Source: a virus
Lineage: Duplodnaviria > Caudoviricetes
Length of the DNA: 64,000 nucleotides
IMG/VR virus record: IMGVR_UViG_2588254079_000001
Span: 2,998 to 66,997 of that record
Reading direction: 5' to 3' (one strand)
Part shown: positions 33,589 to 61,654 of the stretch, piece by piece
Position numbering within the stretch: position 1 is the first letter of the stretch
Layout of the letters: the number at the start of each line of letters is the position of its first letter
The notes under the pieces: model-generated
Told to the model about the DNA's origin: nothing
The model's input: the letters and a program-made list of their open reading frames with translations, nothing else
The model's database searches: none
Program-made: the position numbers and the translations under genes

Positions 33589-33591
33589 ATC

Positions 33592-35751: not shown

Positions 35752-35776
35752 AAGCTCATTGTTTTAATTTATATGG

Positions 35777-35817
35777 CAAAATTATGCAGAAAGAGTGCAG
35801 TCTTTCTGCACTCTTTC
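35777..35817 (-). promoter_or_regulatory. Promoter box plus palindromic operator candidate for the WYL-CBASS operon
   Basis: TAATTTTG on minus at 35777-35784, abutting TGCAGAAAGA-N6-TCTTTCTGCA (35785-35810). Confidence 0.65.
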
Positions 35818-35825
35818 AAATAAAA

Positions 35826-40151: not shown

Positions 40152-40167
40152 ATTTAAATTCTGCTTA

Positions 40168-42762: not shown

Positions 42763-44686
42763 AAGTTTCTGTAGAATTAGAGTTAAACACATTGAAGATA
42801 ACATCAACCGTGTTGTGTATCTCCCTTAGATAGCCATCAAAGTCAGGCATACTCCATCGCATTGCATCTATGAAGGATGATTCTGTATTAGAGTTCGAAT
42901 AGTATTTCAAGAATACATTTCGTGTACCTATTGGCATAAAGCGTTTTCCGGCCTTATCTTCGCGGATAATGCAGTGGCGCTTATATGGAAATGGTGCATC
43001 TTGATACTCTCTATTAGTCTTATAATCAAGCAATGTCAGATTGCCTATGCTATCCTTATTCTTTATTGCACCATCACCAGCAGAAAAGTATTCAAGTACC
43101 TCTTTACAGAAGTCGGTGTATTGTTTGTCAATGCCAGTTCCCCTAAGATTAGCTTCATACTTTGGAATAAAATCCATGCATTTATTGTAAAGTGGCTTTG
43201 CTGTTGCCTTTCTTTCATTCAGTTTTGATTCTATTCCAAGAATATAAGCCACATTATTCAACCAGCGCAAACGGTCTTCGTGTTCAACCAATGATGCGTT
43301 GTTCTGAGAGTCAATATGTTCAATGTCCCATTTTTCTTTCTTGAATGAGTCAAATGCAAAGCGCTGTCCCTTCTGGCGGCTTGTCTCTACATTGAACAAA
43401 AGCAATAGACGGAACACATACTTTGAGCCGTATTCAAAACCGTCAATGCTGGCTGCGTTGAGATAGTTACCTTTGTCTTTGAAACTATCCATAATTAGTT
43501 TATGGAACTCTTTCTCGGTATCATCATTTGTCCACTCTCTTCCAGAAAACTGTTGCTTGGCGTTTTCTAGCTTGTTATAGATATCAAGAGGTTGATTGCC
43601 AACACTTACCAGATAACCAACATAGTGATAGTATAAGTTGTTTTCGTACCAGGCAATCAACCTGTCATTAGTTTTTATGACATACTCCCAAGCAGCACGC
43701 ATGTTGTCAATACCGTGTTTCTTCCATAGTTGTTTAAGTTCTACAGAATCATCTTTACGTTCTTGCGCTCTGCAATAGTCATATAGGTTCTGGAATAGAC
43801 GATACGAATAATCTTTATCCGCGTGGTCAGTTGGTTTCTCTGTTACAAAGTCAAACAATACATCTATTCTCGTCTGATGACTATCATTGTTGTTGCTAAT
43901 AAAGTACCAGAACTTATCATCCTGAAACTGACGCTCCATGATGTTCCAATCCAATGCCAGTTTGTCAGCTTCGACCCGATCGTTATTAGATAGGATATTT
44001 CTATCCATGATAAACAATGCCTTGATAAGTTCTGAACTTGTAAGACTGATTTTTCCTTTGTTAAGTCTGTTAAAAACCTGTATGCTTTCAATGGCTTGCT
44101 TCTCTTCTGAAACCACATACCAAATGAACTTTACTTGCTTGCTATTATTAGGAAGAAGTAAACAGTCTTTGATTGAATTCATTACCCCGTCATAGATGTG
44201 ATTCGTAAACCATTTCTCAATCACATTCTTGGCAACAGCCAGATAGTAACTGTCTATGTTGTCTTGAGGTTTGGGGTTTTCAAAATCCAACTGAGGGCGA
44301 TTAGTATAGGTCAGATTGTAAATCTTATCGGGTGTGAATATCTTCTTTTCCAAAGGCATCAAACCATATTCAAATATGAACATCAATATCAATCTAAGGG
44401 TGGTTAAACGTTGCTGCCCATCCAAAACTTCCCAGGCATCAATCTGTACGCCATCAGTATCTGTCCACTTGCAAGGTTTTACGACGAGTGGCTGCAGGTA
44501 ATAACTATCTTCTTTATCCTGTTTAGCAAACTCACAAATGTCTTCCAATAGGTCAATAACCTGTTTTTCCTCCCAACGATAACCACGCTGGTAGGAAGGG
44601 ATGACAAAGTGATACTTTGTCGTGATTAACTCTGCAACAGGTTTTGGGCAGAAGTTAGAGTTTGATGTGTATTGAGTGTTACTCAT
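42752..44686 (-). CDS. GmrSD-like DUF262-DUF1524 protein (type IV restriction)
   Basis: IPSYQRGYRW, DGQQRLTT, FNRLN, IEHI and IGNLTLL....N motifs. Confidence 0.9.
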   Translation of the reverse strand: MSNTQYTSNSNFCPKPVAELITTKYHFVIPSYQRGYRWEEKQVIDLLEDICEFAKQDKEDSYYLQPLVVKPCKWTDTDGVQIDAWEVLDGQQRLTTLRLILMFIFEYGLMPLEKKIFTPDKIYNLTYTNRPQLDFENPKPQDNIDSYYLAVAKNVIEKWFTNHIYDGVMNSIKDCLLLPNNSKQVKFIWYVVSEEKQAIESIQVFNRLNKGKISLTSSELIKALFIMDRNILSNNDRVEADKLALDWNIMERQFQDDKFWYFISNNNDSHQTRIDVLFDFVTEKPTDHADKDYSYRLFQNLYDYCRAQERKDDSVELKQLWKKHGIDNMRAAWEYVIKTNDRLIAWYENNLYYHYVGYLVSVGNQPLDIYNKLENAKQQFSGREWTNDDTEKEFHKLIMDSFKDKGNYLNAASIDGFEYGSKYVFRLLLLFNVETSRQKGQRFAFDSFKKEKWDIEHIDSQNNASLVEHEDRLRWLNNVAYILGIESKLNERKATAKPLYNKCMDFIPKYEANLRGTGIDKQYTDFCKEVLEYFSAGDGAIKNKDSIGNLTLLDYKTNREYQDAPFPYKRHCIIREDKAGKRFMPIGTRNVFLKYYSNSNTESSFIDAMRWSMPDFDGYLREIHNTVDVIFNVFNSNSTETYER

Positions 44687-44688
44687 AG

Positions 44689-45537
44689 CTATTCTTTGTT
44701 TCTATAGAGTTGATTTAATGTTTTAGCTTTCTTCTTATCAATATTGCTTATCCAAGCTGACCAACCGTTCGAAGAACGACCGAGACAGAATACTGCAGCT
44801 CCACTTGGTGATGGAAATGACTTAGCACGCTTTACGATGTAGAAATCGTCTTCCAGTTCACAACGGCATTCTTTGAGCATTTTTGCTCTCTGTTCTGGGT
44901 GTCTGAACTTAGCACTTTCTTTCACACATATCTTGCTTCCTTCCAATACTGTCATGCCTCCATCATTATAGATACCCTTGGCAAGAATTCCATTCTCTAC
45001 GATGTAGAACATAGGCGACTTGTCTGTTACTTCAGCCTTCTCGAAGATGTTATAACCCATGAACGACACGATGAAGCGGATGTCTTCAAAGTATTCGTCA
45101 TCGGTACTTCTTTGCGACTCTGTCAAAGTAGGATTTTTGGGATTCTGCTTGTTCTCATCCAGCGTATACTGATTGACTTTCAGTGCAAGCTCCACAGATC
45201 TCTTTTCAAGATACTGCACGTCAGCCTTTGTCTTGTCATGGGCAAGCGAGACAAATACCAAAGCTCTTTGCCAGAAATCCTTCTTATTGATATGGTCACG
45301 GACTCTCTTATCAAAGTTTTCGGTCTCACCGATATAAGCTTTCGGATTTCCGCTCTCTTCTTCACCTATTAGTATATACAAAGCCGGCGTACGCAATTCT
45401 TTACGTTCATCTTCTCGCAAAATGTCTATGCGTGTACGGGGTATATTATAAGCAATCATTGTGCGGTTGCTTATCACGACGGTTTGCACTCCCTTTGGCG
45501 TTCCGTCAATCAAGTATGTTGTTATAGTCTTGCCCAT
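44689..45537 (-). CDS. GIY-YIG nuclease with DUF4357-like C-terminal domain
   Basis: ALYIL...AYIGET, YLE, and FPSPSGAAVFCLGRSSNGW motifs. Confidence 0.85.
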   Translation of the reverse strand: MGKTITTYLIDGTPKGVQTVVISNRTMIAYNIPRTRIDILREDERKELRTPALYILIGEEESGNPKAYIGETENFDKRVRDHINKKDFWQRALVFVSLAHDKTKADVQYLEKRSVELALKVNQYTLDENKQNPKNPTLTESQRSTDDEYFEDIRFIVSFMGYNIFEKAEVTDKSPMFYIVENGILAKGIYNDGGMTVLEGSKICVKESAKFRHPEQRAKMLKECRCELEDDFYIVKRAKSFPSPSGAAVFCLGRSSNGWSAWISNIDKKKAKTLNQLYRNKE

Positions 45538-45551
45538 GTTGAATATTTTGA

Positions 45552-46760
45552 TTAAACAAACATCTTATCAAGACACGATGATTTGATGCGTTTTAGTGAT
45601 TCTAGTTTCTGTTCTTCGAGAGATATTTGTTTGTCGATGGTACGGAAGAAAATAGAGATCTGTTTCTGCTCTTCATAAGAAGGGAAAACAAAGTCCATTT
45701 CCATAAACTCCTTAAAACTGATTGAACGACCATCTCGAATACCATAAGTAATCAGTTTCAAGCGATCAATGAAAGCTTTAGACATAAAGATGTACTTCCA
45801 ATAATAGTCATCGTGTTTGTCATCTTCCTTGAAACCGAATACTGTATATGCCGGAGAACAAATACCTTCAACGGACGAGTGTGCAAAGCCACCTTGAAAT
45901 GAACGAAGATGGATGACGAACTGACCTGGCAACACACGCTTGTATGTCACCTCGTTTGATTTATCATGGAAAATATCATATCCACTTTCACTTCGAGGAG
46001 CCATTCCTCTAATATCCTGACATGCTGATAGTACAGGAAGCTCTGGATGGTTCCTTTCGTCGAAGGTCTTGAACAATTCGTTGGCTGTCATTGAAGAATA
46101 TTCATCTTCAAATCCTTTGAATCTAACTCTAGGCCTTGTCTCACCTTTTTGTGGGAACATTGCATGAAGAGAAGCAGTCTTCATTTGTCGGAGAGATGCT
46201 ATTTTTTTTGATGATATTTGGATTTGCTTGTCTAGCAATTCAAAGCACTCAACAATTTTATGTTGTTCAGGAAAATTTGGCAAATACACCTTCAATTCTT
46301 TGAGGTCGGAATAAGCCAATGTCTGGCGCATACCATCACCCATTTTATAATAGACTTTGGTTATATCATCATAATAGTGAAGCAGTGTGTAGAGATAATG
46401 CGGATCTACAACTCTAGTATCACACTCCACACAGACATAAGCAGGTGTAATGATGCCTTCTTCTTCGGATATGCCAACTCGAAGACTTTTCTTGTCATTT
46501 TGAAGATCGGTCACTCGAAAAACGATAATATCTTTCTTTATTATCTGATAAGTATCGAATGAAGCAGGTAAAAGTCCTTTTTTAGATTCTATATCCTTGC
46601 GCACTATCTTGCCATAGCTCAATGACAAAAGATTCTGATGATGAACATTCTTGTTAGACTCCCTATATTGACGAGTTATTTCACCTAAGGTTGTTACCTT
46701 CCAAGAATACTTAAACTCATCGAATCTCATTGATGGTATTATGTTTGTCATTTCTTCCAT
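45552..46760 (-). CDS. hsdS: Type I R-M specificity subunit
   Basis: Two TRD repeats with P..EQ.KI helices and the RFKGF spacer. Confidence 0.92.
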   Translation of the reverse strand: MEEMTNIIPSMRFDEFKYSWKVTTLGEITRQYRESNKNVHHQNLLSLSYGKIVRKDIESKKGLLPASFDTYQIIKKDIIVFRVTDLQNDKKSLRVGISEEEGIITPAYVCVECDTRVVDPHYLYTLLHYYDDITKVYYKMGDGMRQTLAYSDLKELKVYLPNFPEQHKIVECFELLDKQIQISSKKIASLRQMKTASLHAMFPQKGETRPRVRFKGFEDEYSSMTANELFKTFDERNHPELPVLSACQDIRGMAPRSESGYDIFHDKSNEVTYKRVLPGQFVIHLRSFQGGFAHSSVEGICSPAYTVFGFKEDDKHDDYYWKYIFMSKAFIDRLKLITYGIRDGRSISFKEFMEMDFVFPSYEEQKQISIFFRTIDKQISLEEQKLESLKRIKSSCLDKMFV

Positions 46761-46766
46761 ATGTGA

Positions 46767-49264
46767 TTATAACAAAGATTGTAATTCCTTCAAACCCTTA
46801 ATGTCATATTCTGAACCCATTAATTGGTCAATCATCGAAGATATTATATTGCCATTGATAGAAATGTGGGAATTGATGTCTCTATAACTTGTTTCGTATC
46901 TGCCACAGAGATATACTAAAGATTTGCTCAAAGTATATATTTCGGATTCAAGAGTTTGCTTTATTGCATCATAAATAGGTGTAACCCACTTCAAATGCAA
47001 AAATTCGTCCACCTCTACATCTGTCAAATTCTGTATGGTATCAATTGTTTTAGACTCTAAATCAGCCTTTGCCACCTTGATAGCCTTGTTTGTCTTGCTT
47101 TGCTTGTCCCAAAGAGCAACAATCTCCTTGAGTTTTGCCTTTGTCTCAGGTTCAATAGAATCTCCCTTGGTTTTGGCATCACTTGTAATCTTCTTCTTGT
47201 TCAACTTTGGACTGTCGCCATCCTCAAGATATACCGTAGTTTCCTCTTCAGTGAAATTGTTAGGTGCATCCTCAAGATTTGAGACACATTCGTCCACTTC
47301 TGCTTGCATCTGAGCAATAGCATCAAGTTCTGACTGGAATTTCACACTCTGCACTAATTCGAATGGCAAAATACGCCCTTTAAGTCCGTCTGGAACCTCG
47401 ACTTCGTCATCACCATCCTTCTTTATCTTATAAGCCTGCTCAACGGCACGAACCGCCTCCATACCATCGGTTTGGATTGTCTCAATGTCATTGACAATTG
47501 TCTGCCAGTTGTCTGCCAATGCTTGATATGCGGTATATTTATCAACAAGTGCGATTGATTGTAGGCGGCGGAAGATTTCTTCTGCAATGGCATCCTGCTC
47601 CTTCATTTCGTTTACAGACATGACATTGGTGATAAGGTGATCATGAAGCATATCCTCGAAGCCTGCAAAGGCATCAACAAACGACTGTTTCAATGCTTTT
47701 ACGTCTGCATTTTCGTTGATAGCATCAGCTATGCTCTCCACCTTCACGCTTGCGTATGGACTGTCATCTTCATTTCTTTGGAATAGTTCGCCACGCAATG
47801 ATGGTAATGCCTGCCAATAGTTTTCGAGCGAATCAATCTCACTCTCTGGAATGCCTCCAAACATAGTAGCGTAGATGTCATACTGCACAGCAGTTTCGCT
47901 TGAATCTACATAACGGGGGATGTTAAGGTTGTAACCATTCTGACGGATTTCGTCACGAGATACTGCACGAGAGAAACCGGGGATTGACTTTCTATCACGA
48001 ACGGTATCGGCAATGCGCTTAATGTCGCAAGCACGCAGTTTGTTCTGCTTGCCATCCTTTACAAATCCCTTTGAAGCATCAACGATTAGTACATCATCAT
48101 TATCACGATGCTGCTTCAGCACCATAATGAGTGTAGGAATACCAGTGCCAAAGAAGATATTGGCAGGCAAACCAATGATAGCGTCGATGTTGTTCTTCTC
48201 TATGAGGTTCTTACGAATCTTCCCCTCGCCATCAACATCTTTTTCTGGATCACCTCGAAAAAGTACGCCATGAGGCAGAACGATAGTGAGAATGCCGTCA
48301 GGCTTGATGTGGTGGAGTTCATGGAGCAGAAACGCATAATCAGCCTTGCTCTTTGGAGCCACACCGTAATCCTTGAAACGAGAGTCCATTTCTGCATCAG
48401 TAGGATTCCAATGCTGAGAATATGGAGGATTGCTGACCACAGCATCTACATAAAGAGGCTTGCTCATATCGCCTGCCTGTACAGGCCAATCTTCATCAAG
48501 CGAGTCTGCACAGCGAGCATTGATGTTGTTTGGCTTGATACCACGCATCACAAGATTCATTCGAGTGAGGTTATAGGTATTCTCTTTCAGCTCCTGTGCA
48601 TAGTACTTAACTTTATTCTTGTCCTCGATATGCCTACCAACCGACTTGCCAATAGTGATAAGCAACGAACCAGAACCAGATGTTGGGTCGTAAATCTCGA
48701 TAGTTTCCTTTGCCTTATGGTGTTCTGCCACAATCTCCGACATAAGTATAGCTACTTCGTGTGGTGTATAGAACTCACCAGCCTTTTTGCCTGCATTGGC
48801 GGCGAAGTTACCAATCAAATATTCATAAACATAGCCAAGCACGTCATAGTCTTGACTGCCATCGGTAGGAATATCCTTAATGAGTTTTATGAAGTCTTTT
48901 AGTGCGCGAGTTTGCGAAGCTGGATTCTCTCCAAGTTTACTAAGACCGGCTTGCAAAGTCAAAAAGATCTTTTCATAGACAGAGCGATAGTTCGCACTTA
49001 CCAAACGGTCAAAATTGTTAAGTGCAGCACTCAGGTCTGCCACATTAAACATAGAATCAGGCTTCAACCATGTACTGAACAGATACTTATACTCGATAAA
49101 GTATCCGATATTGTTCTTACAGTACTCAATAGTATCCTTTGCATTAGCATCTTCATAGTCTTCAACAAGAAAAGGCATATCCTCGTCAGTCCATCCATCC
49201 TTACGAAGATATTGCTCCTCGTTGTCACAGAGAAACTTATAGAAAATAAGACCAAGGATATAAT
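46767..49264 (-). pseudogene. hsdM: Type I R-M methyltransferase subunit, 5' end removed by prophage insertion
   Basis: GEFYTP, DPTSGSG and NPPY motifs; HsdM-like sequence begins abruptly at YILGLIFYKFL with non-HsdM sequence upstream. Confidence 0.85.
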
Positions 49265-49294
49265 TAAATCCGGAAAAACCAGACGTGCCGCTTA

Positions 49295-49334
49295 ACAAAA
49301 ACGATGCGTTTCAAAAAGTACAAAAACGACGCGT
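49295..49334 (+). repeat. Direct repeats at the prophage end (possible transposase-binding sites)
   Basis: ACAAAAACGATGCGT (49295-49309) and ACAAAAACGACGCGT (49320-49334), 14/15 identical. Confidence 0.65.
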
Positions 49335-49477
49335 ACAAGAAAAACGGTGAGCGCGGTCCTATTCAGCATGATCAAAGCCCACCGTTTTTCTTTCACTTGA
49401 ACCCTCTTTAAATGGCTTTAAAATATCATTTAAAAGCCATTGCAGATTCAAAATAATTTCCTATCTTTATGCAATTG

Positions 49478-50332
49478 TTAGGCTGCTATACCTGACACCT
49501 CATCCGGCTTCGTGTACAGCATCATGTCTGTATATTTAGCTTGATAGTTTACGCTTGCACTAAACTCCACTTTCCTGCATTCCTTGAATGGGCTGCCGAC
49601 AAATGGGTTTCGGTCCATCCAGTCGCACAGTTCTAAAATGGAGGACTTGTTCGAGGTGAAGTACACGAACGAATGCCCTTTCAGAACGGTTAGTACATCC
49701 AGATAGTCAGCCAGACGCCAGAACATCTTGTAAGTACCCACCTCGGTGGAGAGGTACGGCGGATCAACCAGGAACACCACACCCGGAACATCTTTGTAAC
49801 GTTTGAATACTTCCTTGTAGTCTTCGCTGGTTATAGTCAGTCCTTCCAGATAATCCTTTGCTTCGGGATAGTCTGTCTGCCGAATCCTATTGTAGATGGC
49901 TTCTTTCTTCATTCCTTCCAAACTGGTCACATATTTCATGGCGAACAACAAGGATGCGGAAACCGTGATATAATCCACGTAACCGTGCTCTTTTTCTTCC
50001 CTCTCAATACGAGCAAACATTTTATCGCGAACCTCCCCGGTTATACGTTTGTTTCTGGGTTCCCCTTCAGCTATCCGACGCAAATCGGATAACAGCACAT
50101 TGGTGGCCGGGATATTTACAAGTCGGCAGCGGTAGTTGTCGAAGTCATTATACACAACGGTGGCATCAGGCCTGACACATTTGGTAATATGTGACAGCAG
50201 GCCCGAGCCGCCAAACAAGTCCACAAACACGGTGCTGTCCGGGAACTGTCCCAGCACCTTGATAAATTCCCTCGCAAACATGCGTTTCTGCCCCACGAAA
50301 GGAAGCGGGGCGGACAAATACATCTTTCTCAT
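49478..50332 (-). CDS. Dam-like N6-adenine DNA methyltransferase
   Basis: PFVGQK, DLFGGSG, YND and DPPY motifs. Confidence 0.88.
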   Translation of the reverse strand: MRKMYLSAPLPFVGQKRMFAREFIKVLGQFPDSTVFVDLFGGSGLLSHITKCVRPDATVVYNDFDNYRCRLVNIPATNVLLSDLRRIAEGEPRNKRITGEVRDKMFARIEREEKEHGYVDYITVSASLLFAMKYVTSLEGMKKEAIYNRIRQTDYPEAKDYLEGLTITSEDYKEVFKRYKDVPGVVFLVDPPYLSTEVGTYKMFWRLADYLDVLTVLKGHSFVYFTSNKSSILELCDWMDRNPFVGSPFKECRKVEFSASVNYQAKYTDMMLYTKPDEVSGIAA

Positions 50333-50427
50333 TTCATTCTGCTTTAAAACGGCCGCAAAGGTCCACAGAATAAACGAAAAACAGCGGGAAACATGAACTG
50401 TTCCCGCTGCAAGACATATACAGCAAA

Positions 50428-51072
50428 CTACACGTTCAACCCGAAGCGGACCGTCTCGTCACCGGCGATCAGCGCACGGGTGCCCGGGATATTATTCTCG
50501 TAGATATGTACATTGCCCAGATAGAGAGTGATCGACTTCAAGGGAAGTTCTATCTGCCGCGCCATCAGGTACAGGTGGTAAATATCGGAAGGTAGCCCGA
50601 GGTTTGCGTCACTGCTGCGCTGGTAGGCGGACAGAACCAGTTCACCGCCATCTAACTGGAACTGTACCAGACTCAAACAGGGTGCCTGGTTGCTCTCGGC
50701 ACCGGTTTCGCCCAGAAAAAGCACGTAGTTCTTGCTGTTGCGCCTCTCCCGGTTAATTTTCGCTATCAACGGAGGCAGCTTCTCGAAATAGGTCGGGTAA
50801 CTGTTCACCAGGATGGAGCCGCAATAGTCCCACCAGTTGATGCCGGCCTCCCGGTACTTCTCCACGTTGCGCTCACCCTGCATAAATAACTGCAACTCGC
50901 TGCGGAGCTTCTTGCGGGCGATATTATGCCCCTCGAATATGTCAAGCAGGTCCGCCGGTGTCAGTGACAGCTGCTCGTTCAGAAGGTATTGTATATTTCC
51001 CTTCTTGTTGGTCTGTGTTTTTCCCGTGGCAAGAATCTTGTCCAGGATACGGTAATACTTGTTCATAGCCAT
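50428..51072 (-). CDS. Short thymidylate-synthase-family protein (possibly dCMP-specific)
   Basis: APCL, YQRSSD, LGLPSD and GNVHIY motifs. Confidence 0.85.
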   Translation of the reverse strand: MAMNKYYRILDKILATGKTQTNKKGNIQYLLNEQLSLTPADLLDIFEGHNIARKKLRSELQLFMQGERNVEKYREAGINWWDYCGSILVNSYPTYFEKLPPLIAKINRERRNSKNYVLFLGETGAESNQAPCLSLVQFQLDGGELVLSAYQRSSDANLGLPSDIYHLYLMARQIELPLKSITLYLGNVHIYENNIPGTRALIAGDETVRFGLNV

Positions 51073-51144
51073 TTCCTCCTTCTAAATTTGAAACACCCTA
51101 AAGATAAGGGGAAACGGCACTCCCTACGACATAAAACAACCCGT

Positions 51145-51387
51145 TCACACTGCAAGCGTCTTGCAGTCGCTCTGGAATCGTTTCACCAAGGCATAAACCT
51201 TACGTTCGCTCACCGAATACTTTTCGGACAATACGGCCACAGCATACGAGACTTTTTCACCTTGATCGAGTAGGCGGGTATAGTCCGCGTACAGGTCGAT
51301 ATACCGGGCATCTTCCAGACGGATGCCGGCCGCCTGAAGCCTTTTCAACAGCTCCCGGTTAAAGTTTAATATCTCAATCACTTTCAT
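51145..51387 (-). CDS. Small HTH protein (Mor/C-like regulator candidate)
   Basis: LSEKYSVSERKVYALVKRF HTH. Confidence 0.65.
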   Translation of the reverse strand: MKVIEILNFNRELLKRLQAAGIRLEDARYIDLYADYTRLLDQGEKVSYAVAVLSEKYSVSERKVYALVKRFQSDCKTLAV

Positions 51388-51413
51388 ACAACAAAAAAAT
51401 TATATCTTTGCAT

Positions 51414-51547
51414 CGCCAATCATTTTTTAGACAACAAAAAAAACGTCAAACCGTGACAGAGGGTATTTGCCCCCGGTCGCGCGGTTTGGCGTTTCATGTT
51501 TATAAAAGTGATTGGCGTTACTTTTTAACAGGCCGGGGGCTTTTTTC
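51414..51547 (+). ncRNA. Putative structured ncRNA
   Basis: TATCTTTG at 51403-51410; nested stems with G-U pairs valid only on +; ends in a T7 run. Confidence 0.55.
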
Positions 51548-51566
51548 TTATCCTCCCCCGAAGGAT

Positions 51567-52052
51567 TTATTCCACCCGGTACTTCTCCGGATCAAAAGCG
51601 TCTTTCTTCCTCCAGCCGTCAGACAGCGTGTCCTGAACATGCTTCATGGCTTTCGTGTAGAAATCGGTCAGTTCCTCCAGTGTGACGAACTCCCGATATT
51701 GGGGAACCTCATCCGTACCGAACTTGAATGTCACGGGAAGCGTAGCACCACCAGTCTGTACGGCCAGATCATACGCTGCCTTATAATTGAACTGGTTTTC
51801 ACTTGACAGCCATACCGGCATACCTTCATAGAGAAAACCGGAAAGTATCTCACGGTCAATTTGCTCATTACACCAGTCTGTAATGACGGACTTTATAGTA
51901 TCCATGTGAGGTCTGCCGACAAAGCCTTCCTCCATGTAGGAGGCGGATCCGTCCTCACGTTCCTGTACATCCCAGCGGATGCGCCATCTGTTGCGTGCCG
52001 GGCTCACGCACTCGATCAGTTTTATCCCGGATGTTCCTTCTACCCGTTTCAT
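51567..52052 (-). CDS. Phage protein, DUF4376-like, translationally coupled to the RT
   Basis: VWLSSENQFNYKAAYDLA motif; ATGA overlap with the RT stop. Confidence 0.65.
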   Translation of the reverse strand: MKRVEGTSGIKLIECVSPARNRWRIRWDVQEREDGSASYMEEGFVGRPHMDTIKSVITDWCNEQIDREILSGFLYEGMPVWLSSENQFNYKAAYDLAVQTGGATLPVTFKFGTDEVPQYREFVTLEELTDFYTKAMKHVQDTLSDGWRKKDAFDPEKYRVE

Positions 52053-53353
52053 GTAAATATGTATTTAGTTCGACCCTTGCCGAAGGTTTCCGTCTTGATG
52101 GTGGTCTCGAACGGGAAGCCGTCGGGCATATCCTTCACTTGCAAGAGGATGTTCTTCATCTCCTCGCTGTTGGTAAAGAACTTTTTCGGTTCACCGTTCA
52201 TCTCAATGGCCACGATACAGCGGTCCTCGCCCTGTTCGGTCTTGATGCCCGTCTCGAAGTCCTTCACCACAATCGGTAAGTTCACCAGCTCCCGGATGCT
52301 TACCACCACCCCGGGAAAACGTTTCTTGCCGTCCTCCGGCTTGTAGGAAACGTTCAAGTCTTTAAATGATCTCATGTCTTTGCCTGTTAATTTTTTAAAC
52401 AACGTATGACAGTCGGCGTGCTTGGCCATCCCGTAGAACGACGCTATCAGCTCACGCCTCCTCCTTCTCGATTTTACCTCGTGCATTTTTCGGGCGAACT
52501 TCTGCTTGATGCGCTTGCGAAGGCGGACATGGTCCGCACCGAAAGTCACATACCCCAGAAAGTCGATGCCCTCGCCCGGCGGGAACACGCGCTCGTTCCC
52601 CTTCACCAGGAGACCGGCACACTCCATGCGCCCGTGGACGGCATCACGAATCTTCCACAGTTCCGCTTTCGTTTTACCCAGTACGACGCCGTCATCACAA
52701 TAGCGGTAGAAATGACGCACGGCATACCTGTCCTTCAGATAATGGTCCAGATACACAGACAAAAGCAAATTGCCCAGCCCCTGCGAGCTGCGCAGGCCGA
52801 TACTCAGACCTTCAGGCATCAGGCGGATAAAGCTCTCCAGCATGGTCACGAGCTTTGCGTCCTTGAACACCCGGCTGACGCAATACATCACAAAATCCTG
52901 CTTCACGCTCTCGTAGAATTTGGTGATGTCAAACTTGTAACAGTAACGTGTACCATCAGGGTCTTCGGCCATGTCACGGCGGACATACGCCAGGAGGTCG
53001 TGCATCCCCCGTCTCTTGATACTGGCGGAGGTGGTACGGATGAAACGTTTCCGCAGATGGCGGTCCACCACCGCCATGATGGCATGCACGGCGATGCGGT
53101 CCTTCATCGGGATCACCTGAATGCGGCGTAGCTTGCCGCCCTCGATGATCTCGCGTTCACGGTAGTCCTTCACGCGGAAAGTACCGGATGCGATCTGCGC
53201 GACCAGCTCCTCCAACACCTCGGGCTTATGCGCGAGCAGATAGCACCCCTGGCGGCTGCGTTTACGCTTGCTGCCGCGAAGGACCTGCCGGAAGGAAGCC
53301 TCCATGTTGGAAGGCTCCACGATCTCCTCGATGATATACCCAACCCTGCGCAT
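52049..53353 (-). CDS. DGR reverse transcriptase with C-terminal extension
   Basis: KLRRI, DRIAVHA, KFDITKFY, GLSIGLRSSQ (DGR-type SQ), YRYCDD and IDFLGY motifs; adjacent to the TR. Confidence 0.95.
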   Translation of the reverse strand: MRRVGYIIEEIVEPSNMEASFRQVLRGSKRKRSRQGCYLLAHKPEVLEELVAQIASGTFRVKDYREREIIEGGKLRRIQVIPMKDRIAVHAIMAVVDRHLRKRFIRTTSASIKRRGMHDLLAYVRRDMAEDPDGTRYCYKFDITKFYESVKQDFVMYCVSRVFKDAKLVTMLESFIRLMPEGLSIGLRSSQGLGNLLLSVYLDHYLKDRYAVRHFYRYCDDGVVLGKTKAELWKIRDAVHGRMECAGLLVKGNERVFPPGEGIDFLGYVTFGADHVRLRKRIKQKFARKMHEVKSRRRRRELIASFYGMAKHADCHTLFKKLTGKDMRSFKDLNVSYKPEDGKKRFPGVVVSIRELVNLPIVVKDFETGIKTEQGEDRCIVAIEMNGEPKKFFTNSEEMKNILLQVKDMPDGFPFETTIKTETFGKGRTKYIFT

Positions 53354-53560
53354 AAATTACTGTTTATTGCTTTTAATACGGGGCCTTCAATCCCCCGGGC
53401 CCGGCTTCTTCGAACCGTTTCCGGCCTACCAAACCCTACCCGACACTTTATTTTTCAGTTTTCCGGCCCTTACGGACCGCTGTTACTGCGGCTTGCCCCC
53501 CTCGGCACCACGGTGGGGACAAGTCCCCGGTGTTGTACGCCGATTAAAATTTCCTTTCGA

Positions 53561-53678
53561 TTGTTGTTCAGACGAGAACCGATGTTCGTGTTCGTATTCG
53601 AGGAATCGTTGTTCGCATTCGACATCGAAACACCGCCATTCGGGTTCGCGTTGTTGTTGCCACGATAGACCACACGGC
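53561..53678 (-). repeat. DGR template repeat (TR)
   Basis: AAC/AAT-rich copy of 53931-54048; all 18 differences are at TR adenines. Confidence 0.96.
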
Positions 53679-53705
53679 CTATGGGGAGGCGCCACCTTTC
53701 AAATG

Positions 53706-53713
53706 CAAAAGTA
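53706..53713 (-). promoter_or_regulatory. Promoter -7 box for the TR-RT transcript
   Basis: TACTTTTG on minus, 28 nt upstream of the TR. Confidence 0.6.
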
Positions 53714-53775
53714 CTATTTTCAAATTATTATTTAACAAACAGATACAAAACCTGACGTCAAAAAAATATTTTTCG

Positions 53776-53820
53776 ACGGGCTGACGCCCGTAATGAACGG
53801 CGTTCCCCTGCTCGGGGAAC
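53776..53820. other. Two GC-rich hairpins downstream of the target gene (DGR homing cruciform candidates)
   Basis: ACGGGC-TGAC-GCCCGT and GTTCCCC-TGCTC-GGGGAAC. Confidence 0.6.
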
Positions 53821-53869
53821 ACCGGATGTTTTGTCGCTTCGCTCCCGCTTTGACGCTTTACGCGGCCGA

Positions 53870-56800
53870 TCATGCAACCTCGCTTATCGCTTTAAACGCC
53901 ACGGCGCTCGACGCCTTAACGAGCCGGCCGCGGAAGGCCAGACGAGAACCGATGCTCGCGTACGTATACGAGGAATCGTAGTACGCATACGACATCGAAA
54001 CACCGCCATACGGGTACGCGTAGCTGTAGCCACGATAGACCACACGGCTGGAGGCAGTGGATATGTAGTAGATGTCGCAGTAATTTGTCGAGGAGGAACC
54101 CGAAACGGAACCCACCGGAATCACGTCCATATATTTGCCATGCGCCACGGCGGTAATCCAGATACCGGAGCTCACGGAACCCTTAACCAGGCGGGTACTG
54201 CCGTCAGGCATCCAGATGCGCCACTTCCCGGAATTGCCCGTGTCATTAGGAAGATCCACGCCGTCCATCATGTCATATTTATGACCATAGATGTCCTCGT
54301 AGCCAAGGCAGCAAATATTATTCACCTGCGTAACCGTGGCCCCGCCGTAGTCATCCTTCTCACGGTACCACGCATACTGGTGGACGGAGTTTTCTATCAG
54401 GCTGTTCGTCACATTAGGGTTGATTGAGGAGGCTTCCTCGTAGCCGATCGTGTCCGTCATACCGCGGCTGGCAGTACCACCCGTAGTACGGTTGTTCGTG
54501 TGAGAGCCCGCGCCGCATTGTTCCTGGCTGTCACGACGACCGTACTTCGCGTAGAAAAGATTCGCGATGCGCGAGTGCATAAGGGCATCAATCTGCTGCA
54601 TACCGCGCTGGACACTGTAATAGTGGAAATCAGCCCAGGTCATGCTCGCCGTAGTGCTCCCGCCGGTAATGCAGGCGCGAAGTTTGGAACCGACAACACT
54701 GCTGCCCACAACGGCACACAAGTGCTCGTCATTAGGCACCCATTCGGGTTCCATATCCTCGATCCTGTCACTGTTAGAAAGGACAACCTTATCGAACTCT
54801 GCCGTGTTCAGAATGGAGAAATGCAGGGCTGTAGCACGTTCCGGAACGTCTGCTATCAGATACATGCCGGCTTCAAATTTCAAGCCGATGGTCGGCACCA
54901 CAATACTCTTCAGGATGTTTCCCTCCGCATCAGCAAACACACTGCCGATAAGCCCTGTTCCTGGAACGCTCGGGAAGCGGACACGTCTGTAACCCGACAC
55001 GTCCACTTTGCACACGGAATAAGCCTTGTCCGTCGTATAGGATTCCATCAGCGTGGGCTTGCCGCTCATGATCTTGCGTTCACCCAGCCAGCCGCCCTGT
55101 GTCTCCTTGATGGCATCCAGTGTCAGTACCGTCGCCTCAGGCACCGGGGGCATTTCGTCCTCCGGATAACTGCTGTAGCAGGCGTACTTCTTGTTGTTCA
55201 AATAATCGTTGATGCCTTTGCTCCAGTAAAACGGCTCATACATCATCCAGTCTCCCTCGCTGCCGTCCAGCTTCGCCACCGTACAGTCGTTCATATCCTC
55301 CGCATCGGCATAGAAGTTCGAGCTTTCGTCATGCAGGGGGAAATAGGTCATCTCCCCGTCCGGGTTGTTCACTTCCACCTGCTGCCCGGCTATCTCCACC
55401 TTCCGGCTCGTGGGCATCTTCGTCACCTTGGCCAATACGCGGTGGCGCTTGGACAGGATGGCATTCACATGCCCGCTCATTTTGTACGTATTGCCGAATT
55501 TGTACCCCGTCTTGTTGTCCAGGTTCGAAACATTGGCATCGTCGGCCACGCTGTCGTCAAACTCGATCATCGTATAGGGCGGCTGCTTGATGGTCAGTTC
55601 CGGATAACGGGCGGCATACTTCTCCAGTTCCTCATCGGCCAGATACTTCGTCAGGGTCAGCTTGCCCCTCAGTCCCGAATGCCGGTCATCCACGGCACCC
55701 GTCTGTGTATACGTTCCGTAGTCGTAATACTTCTTCAGCAGGGTTCCGTCGTCTTCCCGGTCTATCTCCAGCACGAAGCGCTCCAGCTTGCCGCTGCCGT
55801 TCAGTCTGGCCTGGTGCAGGCGTTCCAGCATAGCGAACCCGTCGATGCCGGGGCAGTTGGTGTAGCGGTAGCCCCGCACATTATTGATCCCTTCCAGTAT
55901 CAGGCCACTATCGGACAGCTTGGTCAGATATTCCAGGAACAGTTCCTCAATCGTGTCCGGCAGGCATAACTGCACAACGGGCGCACCGGTGGCCAGTTTC
56001 ACACGGGTCAGCCCCGTACCCCTCACGTCCAGTTTCTTCAGGCGGCCCTGCCAGCTCAAGTCCAAAGTGGCCACATTCCCGTTGTCCCCGTTCCGGGCCA
56101 GCCGGTTGTTCCGCATGTTCACTTCTTCCAGAAGCAGCATACCATTGGTCGAAGCCATGAACGAGCCGTTCCGGTAACCGCTGGCTTTCTCCACGCTCAT
56201 GTCGAGTTTTACCAGTGAGGTCAGCAGACCGAAGTTGAAGCCGATTGCGAACGCATCCTCGTGCCATACCAGCTCCTTGATTTTGGCTGCACCGATAATC
56301 TTCAGCGGGTCGTTCTCACCGAAGGCACGGGTCAGCTGCAGGGAATGGAGCACGTCCGCATCCACCACGCCGCTGTCGGCCTGCACGCCGTTGCTGGTGG
56401 AGAGCTGCACACGGTACGGGATGGTCAGCCGGTACTGCATCGGTTTCAGTTTATAAGCCTTGTCCAGCGATGCCGTACTCTGGTAGAACTGGGCACCCAG
56501 CGTGGATACATAGCCGTACTCCACCTGCTTCAGGTCATACCGGCGTTGGATGAAGTAGTTCCGGTGTGCTTTCAACGAACCCTTCAGACCGTAGATTTGC
56601 GGATAGGTCTGTTTGGCACCGTCAGCACCCACCGGCATTTCGTTCAGGAACGGGTAGATGTATTTGAAGATGCCGGACTTGTTATAGAGGCGTGAGCACC
56701 ACTTCTTCATCTGTTCGGTATCGAAATGGTCAATGGCTTTCTGGATACTGAAGGCACTCATGAAGCTTGCGCCCCCGTTCCATCCGCTCACCATAATCTC

Positions 56801-59800
56801 CACAATCATGTCCCAGCAATTGGCCACGATGAGGTTCCACAGCCACGAGTTATGACCCTGCATCACATAAGCCCCGTCGCGCTTCGTCTGGCGGTTGTCG
56901 TCATACTTCCCGGTCAGGAACGACTTGTTGTCAGAACCGAGCTGGCAGTCGCCGTCATAATAGTCAATCGACCATTTCACACCGTCCCATGTGCGGATAA
57001 GCATGTTCTTCGCAAGCTGGTCCACGCCGAGGTTGAACTGCACGTACAGATAGTAGGCAATCAGGTGGGGAAGGTCGAAATACTTCCCGGCCTCTTTCCT
57101 GAACGTATCGCTCTGCCACTTGGCGGTAGGGAACTTGTCGCCGTCGTCCTCATAGTCCACCCCCTCGAACGAATGGGATTCCGTGCTGTAAACCATGTTC
57201 CTGCCCGCAGGCGTTTCCTTTACGCACCGGTAGACGAAACTCATCATGCGGTCGGTGGCCTTGTACATCTTGTCGTACTTGTCACCGGTACCGAGGTGGT
57301 CTTTCAGGTTCGGTTCTTCCTCCGCGTCACCGCCTCCGTCCGACCAGAAGGTATCTTTCGGATGATTAAATTCCAGTCCTCCGTCAAAGTTGTAGTCCAT
57401 GAAATCCTTATGCTCCGGTTCGGTACTCGGCAACCAGTGGAACAGGCACAGCGGATTGGAGTTGTTCAGCGTCTCGAAGCAGACGGGCAGGTACTGCTTG
57501 TGTCCTTCCTCGTCGGCTTCCAGGTAGTTCAGCGTGTCGCCCTCGCCCCATTTCTCGCCGCCGATGGTCTCATCCTGCCCGAAGATGGGGTAGCTGTCGC
57601 TCTTCTCGTTGTTCATGTTGTACTGGCCGTAATAGGTCAGGTCTTCGTCGGCACTCTTCGCTACGAACAGGTCGCACGGCAGGCCGTCGATGGCCGAACG
57701 GTAATCATCCTCCAGCCCATGGTCTTTGGCGTAACGCTGGGCAGGCGTAAGCAGCCCCATCTCTTTCAGTCCGTCATTGATAAGCTTCGCACCTCCGGTA
57801 TTGGTGGTCATGGACGAGTCCGAGAAGTCGCATTTGGAACATGCCAGCTTCGCGCCTACCGAGTTCCTGCGTAACTTGAAGAGATTTTTTTTGCCGGTAG
57901 TTACCACCGGATTCTTCTGCCTGCCGTTTCCGTCAATCTCCCCGTAGCTCAATGTAACCGTCCAGCCGCTTGCCGTCTTCTGGAAGTAGAAACGGAAGTT
58001 CTTTCTGGCATAGTTCACGGAAGAAGTACCCTGAATACGGACATATACGTTGGTAAGGATAAAGTCAAGCGTCCTGTCCTCTCCGTTATAGAAACGGACC
58101 TCCCTTACCAGTTTATTGGCCTTCTTGTCGTTCAGCTGGGCCAGTGCATCCACCACGTTCAGCGTGTCGCTCTCGCTCGGAACCTCACTGCCCACGCTGC
58201 CCGTGCCTATCAGTACCAGGATCGAGTTCCGGCGCTTCTTCATCAGCCCCATCAGCTTCTCCATGCTCACCGTATCTCCTTCATTCAGCACGCGGTTGTC
58301 CTCATCCAGTGAGCGCACGCCCGGTTCCCCGTCGGCATCCTCCAGGTGGTTGCGGTCCACGATGTAGTTGTTCAGCACCTCGTCCGAGGTCAGCGCCTTG
58401 TTATAGATACGCACGCTCTTCACGTTCAAGTCGGCACCTGCCGACTTAAATTCCAACTGGCTCTGAATGTCAAAATTCACCTTGTCGAGCCACTTGGAAG
58501 CAGCCGACTCTTCACCGTTCACATAGAAACCGATCAGCGTGCGCTGTTCGTTGGTCTGCACGTTCGGATAGAACACGTAGGTAATGCGGATATTCGTACC
58601 CGGCTGGAACTTGGTACCCACCGAGTCTTCATAGCGCAGCACCTGTCCGGCATCCATCGCCTCGGTCACCACACCGGTCAGGAACTTGGCCTCTTCCGGA
58701 GTCACAATCAGCCCGTACCGGTTGCCGTTGTCCAGCTGCCCCAGGCAGGTGATCAGCTCGGCATCCGTATCCGTCACGTTGGCCGTGCTGTATTCTATCT
58801 CCAGCGTCATGCCCACGTCACGGATGGCAAATCCCTCGGGCTTGTCCGCCTCGTTGAAGGGGCGGTAACCGCCGTCAGCGGTCAGGGTCATACCTGCACC
58901 ACTGGCCAGCAGCAGGCGGTCCTTGTGCCAGCCGCTACCGGCACCATATTCGTTCACGCTCCACAGCACGTCCCGGAACTCCATACGCTTGTCACCGCTC
59001 ACCCAGCTTGCCGGGTTGTTTTCCGTGTTGCTTCGCCCGAAGGCGTCAAACGTACACACGGCATCCGGTGCCAGCGTGGCTTCAATGTCCGGGTGCGATG
59101 TGGTGTTCACCTGCACCTCAAGCACGGCATCGCCGCATGACACACGGTAGTCCAACGGTTCCACGTTCACGTTCGTCCGTCCGTAGCTGCCGGTCTCACC
59201 GCGTTGCAGCAGGTCTTCCTTCACCACGCTGCCCCGGTCGGTCACTTTCACACGGGCCGTATACGCATCGCGGTCATAGCCGGCATACGTGAAGTTCCAT
59301 GCCGTGAACTGCTCTGCCTCCAGCACCGGGTGTTTCCAGTCACGCTGGAACCCCGCTGCCCGGTGGCTGAACATCAGGCCGGCATACGCTGTCACACCTC
59401 CGCCTGCCTTCAGCAGCGTAATGTAATGCACCCGGCTCACCACACCGGAGTTCTCATGCTGCGCGTAGGCTTCCACCACGTTCGTACCCTCCTGCATCTG
59501 TGTCAGGGGGATGGTCACGTTCTTCTGCTGCACACCGCTGCCGGCCGAAAGACCGAGGGTAAAGGCCTGTCCGCCGTTCACGCGGTAGTAGATGTTCTTC
59601 TCACCGCTCGTGCCCTTGGCAGTAAAGGGGATGTTCACGTCATTTTTATATCCCCCGTCGGCCAGCCCGTTGCCCGCCGAGTAGGTGGTCTCCAGCTCCA
59701 TGGCCACCATGGTCACCTTGGCCGTGGCCGTCTTCATCAGCGTGCCGTCCTGGTAAGTTGCCTGCGCTTCCACCTGTACGGTATAGGCAGTGGCATCCTT

Positions 59801-60421: not shown

Positions 60422-60446
60422 AATACTGTCCTTTTATAATAATCAT

Positions 60447-60641
60447 TCATTTATCAGTTTTACTGCTACCGTTCCATGCGTCCGATCCGTTCCACGGCTC
60501 GTCGCCTTTCCAGTATCCAAGTCCGAAACAGCTGCTTATCGCAGACCACACCAGTCTTGCCCCGGCATAGACTGCCGACAGGGCACGTTTCCCCACATAC
60601 GCAGCCGTTATTTCCTTACCGCCTATGGTTATCATCGTCAA
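60447..60641 (-). CDS. Small phage tail-region protein
   Basis: 64 aa, YVG...VYAGARLVW; overlaps its neighbour by 4 nt. Confidence 0.75.
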   Translation of the reverse strand: MTMITIGGKEITAAYVGKRALSAVYAGARLVWSAISSCFGLGYWKGDEPWNGSDAWNGSSKTDK

Positions 60642-61357: not shown

Positions 61358-61641
61358 TCGTTTTTATCGGTTTCTGACCCGCCCAGGATTTCGTTCAGGG
61401 CATCTATCACATTGGGAAGACAATAGCGTTCCACCGCCATGTGTATCATCCCGGTTTCCTCATCGCTGAACTCGGTCTCGCCGGTACTCTCGAAAATCTT
61501 GAACGCAAGCCGATGGGCCTTGATGCCACTGACACGCGTATACAGCAAATCGGCTATCTGCTCACGTGCATCGAAAACCTCCCTCGTCTGACGGGTTATT
61601 CCGGTGGGAACGCTGAAATTCCTGAAATCTAACTTTTTCAT
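61354..61641 (-). CDS. Hypothetical phage protein
   Basis: 95 aa in a coupled operon. Confidence 0.75.
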   Translation of the reverse strand: MKKLDFRNFSVPTGITRQTREVFDAREQIADLLYTRVSGIKAHRLAFKIFESTGETEFSDEETGMIHMAVERYCLPNVIDALNEILGGSETDKNE

Positions 61642-61654
61642 ATATATCTGTTTT

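Follow-up and report, generated by a model that had tools for sequence, protein, structure and literature searches.

The right end of an inserted Hankyphage

The window analysed here is a single stretch of 64,000 nucleotides, corresponding to positions 2,998 to 66,997 of the IMG/VR virus record IMGVR_UViG_2588254079_000001. Positions 49264-64000 of this window are the right end of Hankyphage, the Mu-like Bacteroides phage p00, with which they share 100% nucleotide identity. Over 4101 bases the sequence is 99.8-100% identical to the records BK010646, PV107405 and OY725644, and the order of the genes is the same. The end of the 42831 bp records BK010646 and PV107405 maps to position 49265, and identity to the Bacteroides phage BKO1-TP1 is continuous from approximately position 49264 rightward, but gone to the left. 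As identity to other Hankyphage records begins at this point, the genes described below are indeed terminal, as a reading of the sequence alone had claimed; the identification with Hankyphage likewise bears out the claim that they belong to a temperate, Mu-like phage. Prophages of the Hankyphage type occur in Bacteroides, Phocaeicola, Prevotella, Segatella, Alistipes, Parabacteroides and the Muribaculaceae, and, according to the portions of the literature consulted, the phage is widespread in human guts around the world.

Three genes on the same strand lie next to this end: a small Mor-like gene, a gene for a thymidylate synthase (TS) homologue and a gene for a D12-class adenine methylase (Table 1).

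Table 1. Features at the phage right end and on the adjoining host side, in window coordinates
Feature	Position	Strand	Length, evidence or context
GmrSD-like ORFs, host side	42752-44686 and 40168-42807	both (-)	host type I restriction operon
Hankyphage right end (Mu-like)	49264..49477		between methylase stop codon and host hsdM junction
D12-class (Dam-like, alpha-type) N6-adenine DNA methyltransferase	49478..50332	(-)	284 aa; PF02086
TS-fold enzyme with dCMP-type signature	50428..51072	(-)	214 aa; PF00303, model, residue tables, tree
Small gene, possible Mor/C-like helix-turn-helix activator	51145..51387	(-)	80 aa; first of trio

The prophage is inserted inside hsdM of a host type I restriction operon, and the same operon holds the two GmrSD-like ORFs, for which the best PADLOC matches are Orf5, HEC-06 and SspE, with a weaker type IV match. 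The sequence-only reading had the phage inserted upstream of these genes and supposed that they could target modified cytosine. The GmrSD-like genes are present, but the proposal of a meaningful insertion beside them is rejected: the phage landed within hsdM and, according to the available part of PMC6199706, Hankyphage inserts at random by transposition, so the adjacency is incidental.

The adenine methylase, the small gene and their linkage

The identification of an adenine methylase next to the TS gene holds at the level of the family. The protein matches PF02086 (1.3e-9, 38.6 bits against a Pfam cut-off of 22), the DNA methyltransferase family phrog_56 (1.8e-34) and PADLOC MTase_II (2.4e-54). 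Its motifs are in the alpha order, with the SAM-binding FxGxG motif present as FGGSG at residues 40-44 and the catalytic DPPY, which aligns with the DPPY of T4 Dam, at residues 190-193. Because its score against the TIGR00571 dam model (24.3) is below the cut-off of 114.85, it is considered a family member rather than an orthologue of Dam. The annotation of the phage record lists no restriction enzyme.

The small gene matches phrog_17790, a family of unknown function (9.7e-39), and the Pfam Mor family PF08765 with a score below the cut-off (0.0039, 17.6 bits against 24.9). A match to PDB Aca7 (0.046) is weak, and that to the Atlas Mor clusters (0.77) provides a lead only; the depositors of PQ571268 call the product a Mor domain protein. 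What had been described as a small HTH gene is therefore present as an open reading frame, but with the Mor match under the Pfam cut-off its helix-turn-helix identity is no more than putative.

Among 80 Bacteroidales loci, the methylase gene adjoins the TS gene in 71, preceded by it in 30 cases and followed by it in 41, while a methylase match is absent from nine. The Mor-like gene lies upstream of both, on the same strand, in 72/80, and a DGR reverse transcriptase is found in just 32/80 of those loci. From its position in this gene order, the small gene may control the trio. Nine promoter-like sites were detected in a sigma-70 scan of positions 49200-52200, compared with 3.5 expected, and four terminator-like sites in the same region, compared with 2.7 expected; neither count is relied on, as the consensus used is not that of Bacteroides promoters.

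The comparison with mom in phage Mu, made in the sequence-only reading on the basis of modification genes at the genome end, also stands, since these genes lie there behind a small Mor-like gene. The resemblance to the Mu com-mom unit, which depends on an activator of the C/Mor family, lies in the placement of DNA-modification genes at the far right of the genome of a temperate, transposable phage, behind a small putative activator. The components are different, however, as a TS homologue and a Dam-like methylase are unrelated to Mom, and the Mor assignment is below the cut-off.

A thymidylate synthase homologue with an altered active site

The central gene of the trio does encode a TS homologue of only 214 aa, as claimed: the protein matches PF00303 with a score of 68.9 bits (5.1e-19; Pfam cut-off 24.3). 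An AlphaFold2 model from a 41-row alignment has a pLDDT of 93.9, superseding a single-sequence fold with a pLDDT of 35.6. The top Foldseek match of this model is the ThyA structure 6auj (TM 0.84), and the nearest sequences outside the protein's own clade are also ThyA (BLASTP, 24% identity, E 3e-16). The gene is named thymidylate synthase by depositors and by NCBI. These likenesses, together with the retention of the catalytic Cys, Glu58, Arg166, Asp169, His207 and Tyr209 (ThyA numbering), favour an ordinary, if divergent, TS that supplements the dTMP supply while the phage replicates. Such a role nevertheless seems highly improbable. Eight NCBIfam TS equivalog models match, each with a score well under its cut-off (the best, NF002497, at 53.8 bits against 327), and the gene has a DNA methylase as its linked neighbour, not genes of nucleotide metabolism. 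The host genus already has ThyA, as one named genome, the B. thetaiotaomicron control, contains its own PF00303 gene. Furthermore, the residues at positions 177 and 147 described below are not those of a TS.

HMMER alignment with E. coli ThyA chains places 'yqrssdanlglpsdi' opposite 'yqrscdvflglpfni' without gaps, and BLASTP and MAFFT give the same register, in which Asp163 corresponds to Asn177 and Cys132, in the motif APCL, to Cys146. Both the gap-free placement of an Asp at the Asn177 site and the retention of the catalytic Cys are thus upheld by three methods. Relative to E. coli ThyA, whose numbering is followed here with that of the phage protein in brackets, Cys146 (Cys132), Glu58 (Glu59), Trp80, Tyr94 (Tyr92), Arg166 (Arg152), Asp169 (Asp155), His207 (His189) and Tyr209 (Tyr191) are kept. 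The changed residues are Asn177 to Asp (Asp163), Leu143 to Gln (Gln129), His147 to Leu (Leu133) and Phe176 to Ser (Ser162). In ThyA, Asn177 and His147 read O4 and N3 of uracil, His207 and Tyr209 bind the deoxyribose 3'-OH, and the phosphate is bound by Arg21, Arg126', Arg127' and Arg166. Three of these four Arg are changed, Arg21 to Lys (Lys24), Arg126 to Lys (Lys114) and Arg127 to Asn (Asn115), leaving only Arg166; throughout the clade the three positions are Lys, Lys/Arg and Asn respectively. The phosphate may therefore be bound differently, and the substrate itself may even be of another form.

The C-terminal lid, which in ThyA closes over the folate, is absent, the protein having approximately 32 fewer C-terminal residues than E. 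coli ThyA. Only 23 residues follow Tyr209, compared with 54-63 in canonical TS, and this tail is 22-34 aa long in 17/19 clade members. As the short archaeal TS model TIGR03283 (201 positions) aligns with the protein end to end, short length is not in itself an argument against methyl transfer.

Position 177 was surveyed in the best 150 library representatives, 56 of which cover the site, and in 120 close homologues. The representatives comprise 55 with Asp, one with Glu and none with Asn, while all 120 close homologues and all 19 clade members of the tree set have Asp. By contrast, Asn is found in each of 23 canonical controls in the same alignment run, consisting of E. coli ThyA and 22 viral TS. 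The Asp is consequently a fixed trait and not a peculiarity of one sequence. His147 is retained in none of the 19 tree-set members, being replaced by Leu, Ile or Met, whereas all 23 controls have His. Gln is found at position 143 in 56/61 covering representatives and 120/120 close matches, and position 176 is small (Ser, Ala or Cys) in 18/19 clade members. Asp169 is kept in 53/56 covering representatives and in all 119 close matches covering the site, the 120th being unaligned there.

The available parts of two studies state that the N177D substitution switches the preference of TS to dCMP (PMC13326640, PMC8670742), and the MetaGPA study, in the part consulted, names positions 177 and 147 as those that best separate contigs with modified cytosine from unmodified ones (PMC8670742). 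That Asp177 comes here with the loss of His147, at the second of these positions, supports reading the Asp as a sign of a cytosine substrate. Rules for the product are also given in the section of PMC13326640 consulted, with Leu143 indicating methyl, Asp or Glu143 hydroxymethyl and Asn169 hydroxy, but these do not fit, because the Gln at position 143 is neither hydrophobic nor acidic.

Phylogeny, selection and distribution

The residue signature marks a monophyletic clade (support 100/94), separate from both canonical ThyA and T4 gp42. The dN/dS of the TS gene is approximately 0.04, compared with 0.10 for the methylase gene and 0.22 for the small gene; it is under strong purifying selection and matters to the phage. 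A search of species-representative genomes with a six-row alignment identified 509 stretches encoding a relative, and viral contigs scanned with three distant members of the clade, P0042, P0106 and P0119, gave no match. In the distant relatives L015-L019 and L021 the TS gene is present without this methylase, and in L021 it is located within a phage replication and recombination region. A search of one literature library found no biochemical or nucleoside data for the clade and no study of the Hankyphage 'thymidylate synthase'. Judged by sequence comparison, the protein appears to represent a previously undescribed lineage.

Comparison with other modifying enzymes

Compared with E. coli ThyA (PDB 1an5 and 6auj), the Hankyphage protein has the fold and the catalytic Cys146 in common, and differs at positions 177, 147, 143 and 176, at Arg21/126/127, in the lid and in failing to reach the equivalog cut-offs. 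The likeness to T4 gp42 is greater at the active site: both have Asp177, Lys21, Asp169, a non-hydrophobic residue at 143, residues other than His at 147 and Phe at 176, and a short tail (28 aa in T4 and 23 aa in Hankyphage), and the chemistry proposed below would be the same. They are nevertheless hardly similar in sequence (BLASTP E 0.03 over 71 aa). A separate branch (99/96), distinct from the Hankyphage-type clade, unites T4 gp42 with RB69 gp48; position 143 is Gln in Hankyphage and Asp in T4 gp42, and Arg126/127 are lost in Hankyphage. Of the original comparison with enzymes of the T4 gp42 type, the residue match therefore survives and the kinship does not. Inheritance of Asp177 from the T4 gp42 family is rejected on the grounds of the separate clades and the BLASTP result, and Asp177 arose independently.

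The 5-hydroxy-dCMP synthases RB69 gp48 and DLP3 gp80, as described in the available part of PMC13326640, have Asp177 in common with the Hankyphage protein and likewise lack a hydrophobic residue at 143. Their diagnostic D169N, seen as Asn169 for RB69 gp48 in the alignment used here, is absent from the Hankyphage clade, which is a different one, and an assignment as a 5-hydroxy-dCMP synthase is rejected, since Asp169 (Asp155) is kept. The TS homologues of T4, SPO1, Pseudomonas phage M6 and Salmonella phage ViI have also lost Leu143, His147 and Phe176, with Ala176 in SPO1 and M6. SPO1, M6 and ViI make derivatives of 5-hydroxymethyl-dU and have enzymes of the dUMP hydroxymethylase type; unlike the Hankyphage protein, theirs retain the uracil-type Asn177 and have Asp143 and C-terminal extensions of 119-157 aa.

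Proposed function of the unit

On balance, the TS homologue is probably a dCMP-specialised, folate-dependent C5 one-carbon transferase, likely to make 5-hydroxymethyl-dCMP and to form, with the methylase, an anti-restriction unit that places two marks. We infer the substrate and product from the residues of the active site. Cys132 would attack C6 of the base and Asp163, in place of Asn177, would read the N3/4-amino face of cytosine, while Glu59, Tyr92, Arg152, Asp155, His189 and Tyr191 would maintain the catalytic machinery of TS. In TS, three elements keep water away from the exocyclic-methylene intermediate and hold the folate for hydride transfer. All are gone here: Leu143 is replaced by Gln and Phe176 by Ser, Ala or Cys, and the C-terminal lid is absent. 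This loss makes 5-hydroxymethyl-dCMP the most likely product, with 5-methyl-dCMP as the alternative.

The latter would be made by a dCMP methyltransferase like that described from Xanthomonas phage Xp12, retaining hydride transfer and leading to 5mC in the phage DNA. Studies cited in the consulted parts of PMC8670742 and PMC13326640 indicate that no change beyond N177D is needed to convert TS into a dCMP methylase. Trp80, Tyr94, Glu58 and Asp169 are kept, position 147 is hydrophobic (Leu, Ile or Met), unlike the polar Thr or Asn of T4, SPO1, M6 and ViI, and the full-length alignment of short archaeal TS models is also favourable to methyl transfer. A methyltransferase is still considered unlikely, as Leu143, Phe176 and the lid have all been lost, when judged by ThyA and the rule in the available part of PMC13326640 and not by the Xp12 enzyme itself. 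Furthermore, a different Asp177 lineage (P0145 and P0148), which keeps Leu143, Phe176 and a tail of 40-47 aa, looks the better methylase candidate. As the Gln143/Lys126-Asn127 site of the Hankyphage type fits no known product rule, the modified base might be 5hmC, 5mC or a hitherto undescribed one.

A modified cytosine nucleotide might also be destined for something other than DNA: a drain or mark on the dCMP/dCTP pool, a source of dTMP through deamination of 5-methyl-dCMP, or the outcome of activity on CMP or a nucleoside. The clade-wide replacement of Arg21, Arg126 and Arg127 is consistent with such a role, as are the lack of a recognised kinase or dCTPase in the phage and the precedent of MilA, a TS homologue that takes CMP according to the part of PMC13326640 consulted. 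It is judged improbable, given that His207 and Tyr209 are kept, that the L021 gene lies among phage replication and recombination genes, and that the tight, conserved linkage to a DNA methyltransferase and a location corresponding to that of mom in a Mu-like genome point to DNA as the target.

In prophages of the Hankyphage type the TS gene probably forms, with the small Mor-like gene and the methylase gene, a single transcription unit at the right end, and we infer that this unit is turned on during lytic growth. By way of the kinases and replisome of the host, some modified dC would then enter the DNA made by replicative transposition, the methylase would add m6A, and the DNA that is packaged would be doubly marked against restriction. 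T4 has genes for a dNMP kinase, a dCTPase and glucosyltransferases, with b-gt located beside gene 42, and no counterpart of these is recognised in Hankyphage. No kinase, dCTPase, glycosyltransferase or polymerase is found among the 48 annotated features of the complete record PV107405, nor did Pfam identify any of these enzymes among ten hypothetical Hankyphage proteins, a search that very divergent versions could escape. Without a recognisable dNMP kinase, dCTPase, glycosyltransferase or polymerase of the phage's own, at best partial replacement of cytosine is expected, and host DNA replicated concurrently would be modified too. Hankyphage has been sequenced by both Illumina and Nanopore, and the accessible portion of that report mentions no oddity (PMC12135933). 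It is suggested only tentatively that Hankyphage-type prophages package DNA carrying both m6A and cytosine modified at C5 before replication, through an independently evolved TS lineage.

Implications

Should the protein instead prove to be a plain TS, it would be a clear exception to the published N177/H147 rule. If modified dCMP is made, the Gln143/Lys126-Asn127 signature would extend the residue code that predicts the products of TS homologues, and the 214-aa enzyme is easily cloned. Large lytic phages that bring their own genes for replication and kinases would then not be the only ones to modify pyrimidines at the nucleotide level, as a temperate transposable phage would do so for cytosine with one enzyme of its own and the kinases and replisome of the host. 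Modified cytosine would be present in a major temperate phage of the gut. That would be relevant to the host range of Hankyphage, which is unusually broad across restriction systems, to type IV restriction as an obstacle to the phage, and to the way modified bases are called in gut virome data.

Family membership and the residue at position 177

The product of the window's thymidylate synthase (TS) gene, 214 residues long as first described, matches PF00303 in Pfam (5.1e-19) and also phrog_160 thymidylate synthase. All NCBIfam TS equivalog models that hit it scored far below their cut-offs. The best structural matches to an AlphaFold2 model (pLDDT 93.9) are bacterial ThyA proteins (TM 0.84). 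The segment RSSDANLGLPSDI aligns without gaps to RSCDVFLGLPFNI of E. coli ThyA in HMMER, BLASTP and MAFFT, so that Asp163 corresponds to Asn177 and Cys132 to Cys146 (E. coli numbering hereafter), in agreement with the substitution and retained catalytic Cys reported by the sequence-only reading.

That reading also proposed following the Asp across homologues. An exhaustive HMMER search returned 676 representatives at E <= 0.001; among the best 150 of these, the site is covered in 56, with Asp in 55, Glu in one and Asn in none. Close homologues from a word-indexed search have Asp in 120 of 120 cases. On these alignments, Asp at 177 is a family trait of Hankyphage-type TS.

A canonical control set, consisting of E. 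coli ThyA and 22 viral TS genes found with P0145, a distant library representative, was put through the same alignment as 19 Hankyphage-type sequences. All 23 controls have Arg21, Arg126, Arg127, Leu143, His147, Phe176 and Asn177, and continue for 54-63 residues beyond Tyr209. All 19 Hankyphage-type sequences have Asp177, Asn127 and Leu, Ile or Met at 147, with Lys or Arg at 126; position 176 is Ser, Ala or Cys in 18, and the tail after Tyr209 is 22-34 residues in 17. Gln143 occurs in 18/19 of this set, in 56 of the 61 covering representatives among the best 150 of 676, and in 120/120 close hits. Glu58, Trp80, Tyr94, Cys146, Arg166, Asp169, His207 and Tyr209 are retained.

Maximum-likelihood analysis of 46 sequences puts the Hankyphage-type set in a single clade (support 100/94), apart from canonical TS and from the branch of T4 gp42 and RB69 gp48. 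The window protein resembles E. coli ThyA (24% identity, E 3e-16) more than T4 gp42 (E 0.03). The separate clades, these scores, the ThyA-like fold and the sub-cut-off equivalog scores indicate that Asp177 arose independently of the T-even enzymes.

A second, separate Asp177 lineage (P0145 and P0148) branches beside canonical TS (98/92). It retains Arg126/127, Leu143, Phe176 and a tail of 40-47 residues, and its members are candidate dCMP methyltransferases.

Predicted substrate and product

According to two papers (PMC8670742, PMC13326640), N177D moves the preference of ThyA from dUMP to dCMP. In the former, the two positions that best separate TS genes of cytosine-modified metagenomic contigs from those of unmodified ones are 177 and 147; the latter associates a bulky hydrophobic residue at 143 with methyl products, Asp or Glu there with hydroxymethyl products, and Asn169 with 5-hydroxy-dCMP synthases, and gives the SPO1, M6 and ViI families as makers of non-canonical pyrimidines. 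The Hankyphage TS carries the dCMP marks Asp177 and non-His147, and its retained Asp169 excludes a 5-hydroxy-dCMP synthase. Its conserved Gln143 fits neither the methyl nor the hydroxymethyl rule.

Leu143, His147 and Phe176 are missing from T4 gp42 and from the TS homologues of SPO1 and M6 (both with Ala at 176) and ViI, phages that make hydroxymethyl-dU derivatives; the Hankyphage clade has likewise lost these three hydrophobic or lid elements. Their role in ThyA is to protect the methylene intermediate and to orient folate for hydride transfer. Because of their loss, 5-hydroxymethyl-dCMP is ranked, with modest confidence, above 5-methyl-dCMP as the predicted product. Peculiar to the clade are the replacements of Arg21 by Lys (also in T4 gp42), Arg126 by Lys and Arg127 by Asn, which leave doubt about the phosphate site and hence about the exact form of the substrate. 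Substrate, product and entry of the modified nucleotide into DNA are all predictions.

No dNMP kinase, dCTPase, glycosyltransferase or DNA polymerase is present among the 48 annotated features of the complete Hankyphage record, or was found by Pfam in 10 of its hypothetical proteins; a 225-aa P-loop protein gave weak AAA matches only. Modified dCMP would thus need kinases and a replisome supplied by the host, with cytosine replacement probably partial. Such a route is conceivable, since a TS homologue expressed alone in E. coli is reported to have given a detectable modified base (PMC13326640). Full-text term searches of the main Hankyphage papers (PMC12135933, PMC6199706) found no mention of the TS gene or base modification, the single paper containing both 'Hankyphage' and 'thymidylate synthase' concerns other phages, and further literature searches on these subjects found nothing.

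Right end of the prophage and its insertion site

Window 49300-53400 is 100% identical to the Bacteroides phage p00 and jmh43_hp records, i.e. Hankyphage; 21 phage records match, of which 20 cover at least 80% of this query. Phage genes and repeats were placed by mapping from PV107405 (a 42,831-bp record).

Features of the phage right end and adjoining host DNA, listed from right to left
Feature	Position	Strand	Detail
Tail-fibre gene	53870-60421	-	2183 aa; PV107405
DGR variable repeat	~53932-54047	-	within tail-fibre gene
DGR template repeat	~53562-53677	-	PV107405
RT-3 RNA	53396-53545	-	Rfam RF03068, 146.6 bits, E 1.4e-36
DGR reverse transcriptase (RT)	52049-53353	-	PV107405
DUF4376 protein	51567-52052	-	depositor label Avd; PF14301 9.7e-7
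Hypothetical (Mor-like) gene	51145-51387	-	80 aa; PV107405
"Thymidylate synthase ThyA"	50428-51072	-	PV107405
DNA methyltransferase	49478-50332	-	PV107405
hsdM	46767-49298	-	
hsdS	45552-46760	-	
GIY-YIG/DUF4357 protein	44689-45537	-	PADLOC PDC-S14
GmrSD_N+C protein	42752-44686	-	
GmrSD_N (DUF262) protein	40168-42807	-	
hsdR	35826-40151	-	
WYL/WCX regulator		-	then CBASS-like pair (SAVED-HNH effector, SMODS cyclase)

The adjoining gene does encode the adenine methylase originally proposed: PF02086 (D12 class) scores above cut-off, and DPPY at residues 190-193 lines up with the DPPY motif in T4 Dam. Identity shared with another Hankyphage record starts at about 49264, so the methylase is the final gene before the right end and the module is terminal, as had been claimed. 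The IMG/VR record (66,997 bases) terminates inside the phage. In the neighbouring DGR, the RT-3 RNA lies between the template repeat and the RT gene; the DUF4376 ORF overlaps the RT stop codon by 4 bases and travels with RT, being found in 35 of the best 80 of 509 related loci.

Left of the phage end is a minus-strand host defence island (31948-46760 plus hsdM), in which the GIY-YIG/DUF4357 gene and two GmrSD_N (DUF262) genes are embedded between hsdS and hsdR. Phage-end DNA (junction ~49264) supplies the first ~11 codons of the hsdM ORF as listed, and alignment with a solved HsdM (3LKD) pairs residue 12 of the ORF with residue 33 of that protein. On this alignment the prophage is inserted inside hsdM and has deprived the gene of its start, probably inactivating the type I system. 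The sequence-only reading had pointed to insertion upstream of GmrSD-like genes that could target modified cytosine; this position is a by-product of random transposition into hsdM, and a designed phage-GmrSD relationship is rejected. Left of the island, G+C varies from 29% to 55% across 1-kb windows of positions 1-31000, which suggests further mobile or mosaic DNA.

Linkage, spread and selection

A scan of one genome per species identified 509 stretches encoding a TS relative. Linkage was counted in the best 80 (82-100% identity), from Bacteroides, Phocaeicola, Prevotella, Segatella, Alloprevotella, Alistipes, Parabacteroides, Hoylesella, Muribaculaceae and others. Of these 80, 71 have the methylase and the TS gene side by side, in every case on one strand, and 72 have the small Mor-like gene in front, but only 32 have RT; the trio thus persists more consistently than the adjoining DGR. 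The order is Mor-like/TS/methylase in 30 of the 71 loci and methylase/TS in 41, a swap that argues for selection on the combination.

Among related IMG/VR viral loci, nine (L006-L014) have the complete array from RT through methylase, and L015-L019 (TS 68-72% identical) and L021 (55%) carry TS but lack this methylase. The TS gene follows tail genes and precedes restriction-modification genes in L018, and its neighbours in L021 are NinG, ERF and a DnaB-like helicase. On L018 (8862-14982), a Hankyphage-related viral contig, the place of the D12 methylase after the TS gene is taken by Mod and Res genes of type III-like character and by a Tsp45I restriction enzyme and its methylase, which may be phage cargo or host flank.

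By tblastn against phage records, identity reaches at least 80% in 21 records only, the other 752 matching records lying below 60%. Rough pairwise dN/dS values, with dS near saturation, are ~0.04 for TS (89 usable pairs), 0.10 for the methylase (74) and 0.22 for the small gene (162), from 400 sampled per gene. Beyond what was first noticed, the analysis describes a distinct, widespread and strongly conserved lineage of dCMP-type TS within a conserved modification trio.
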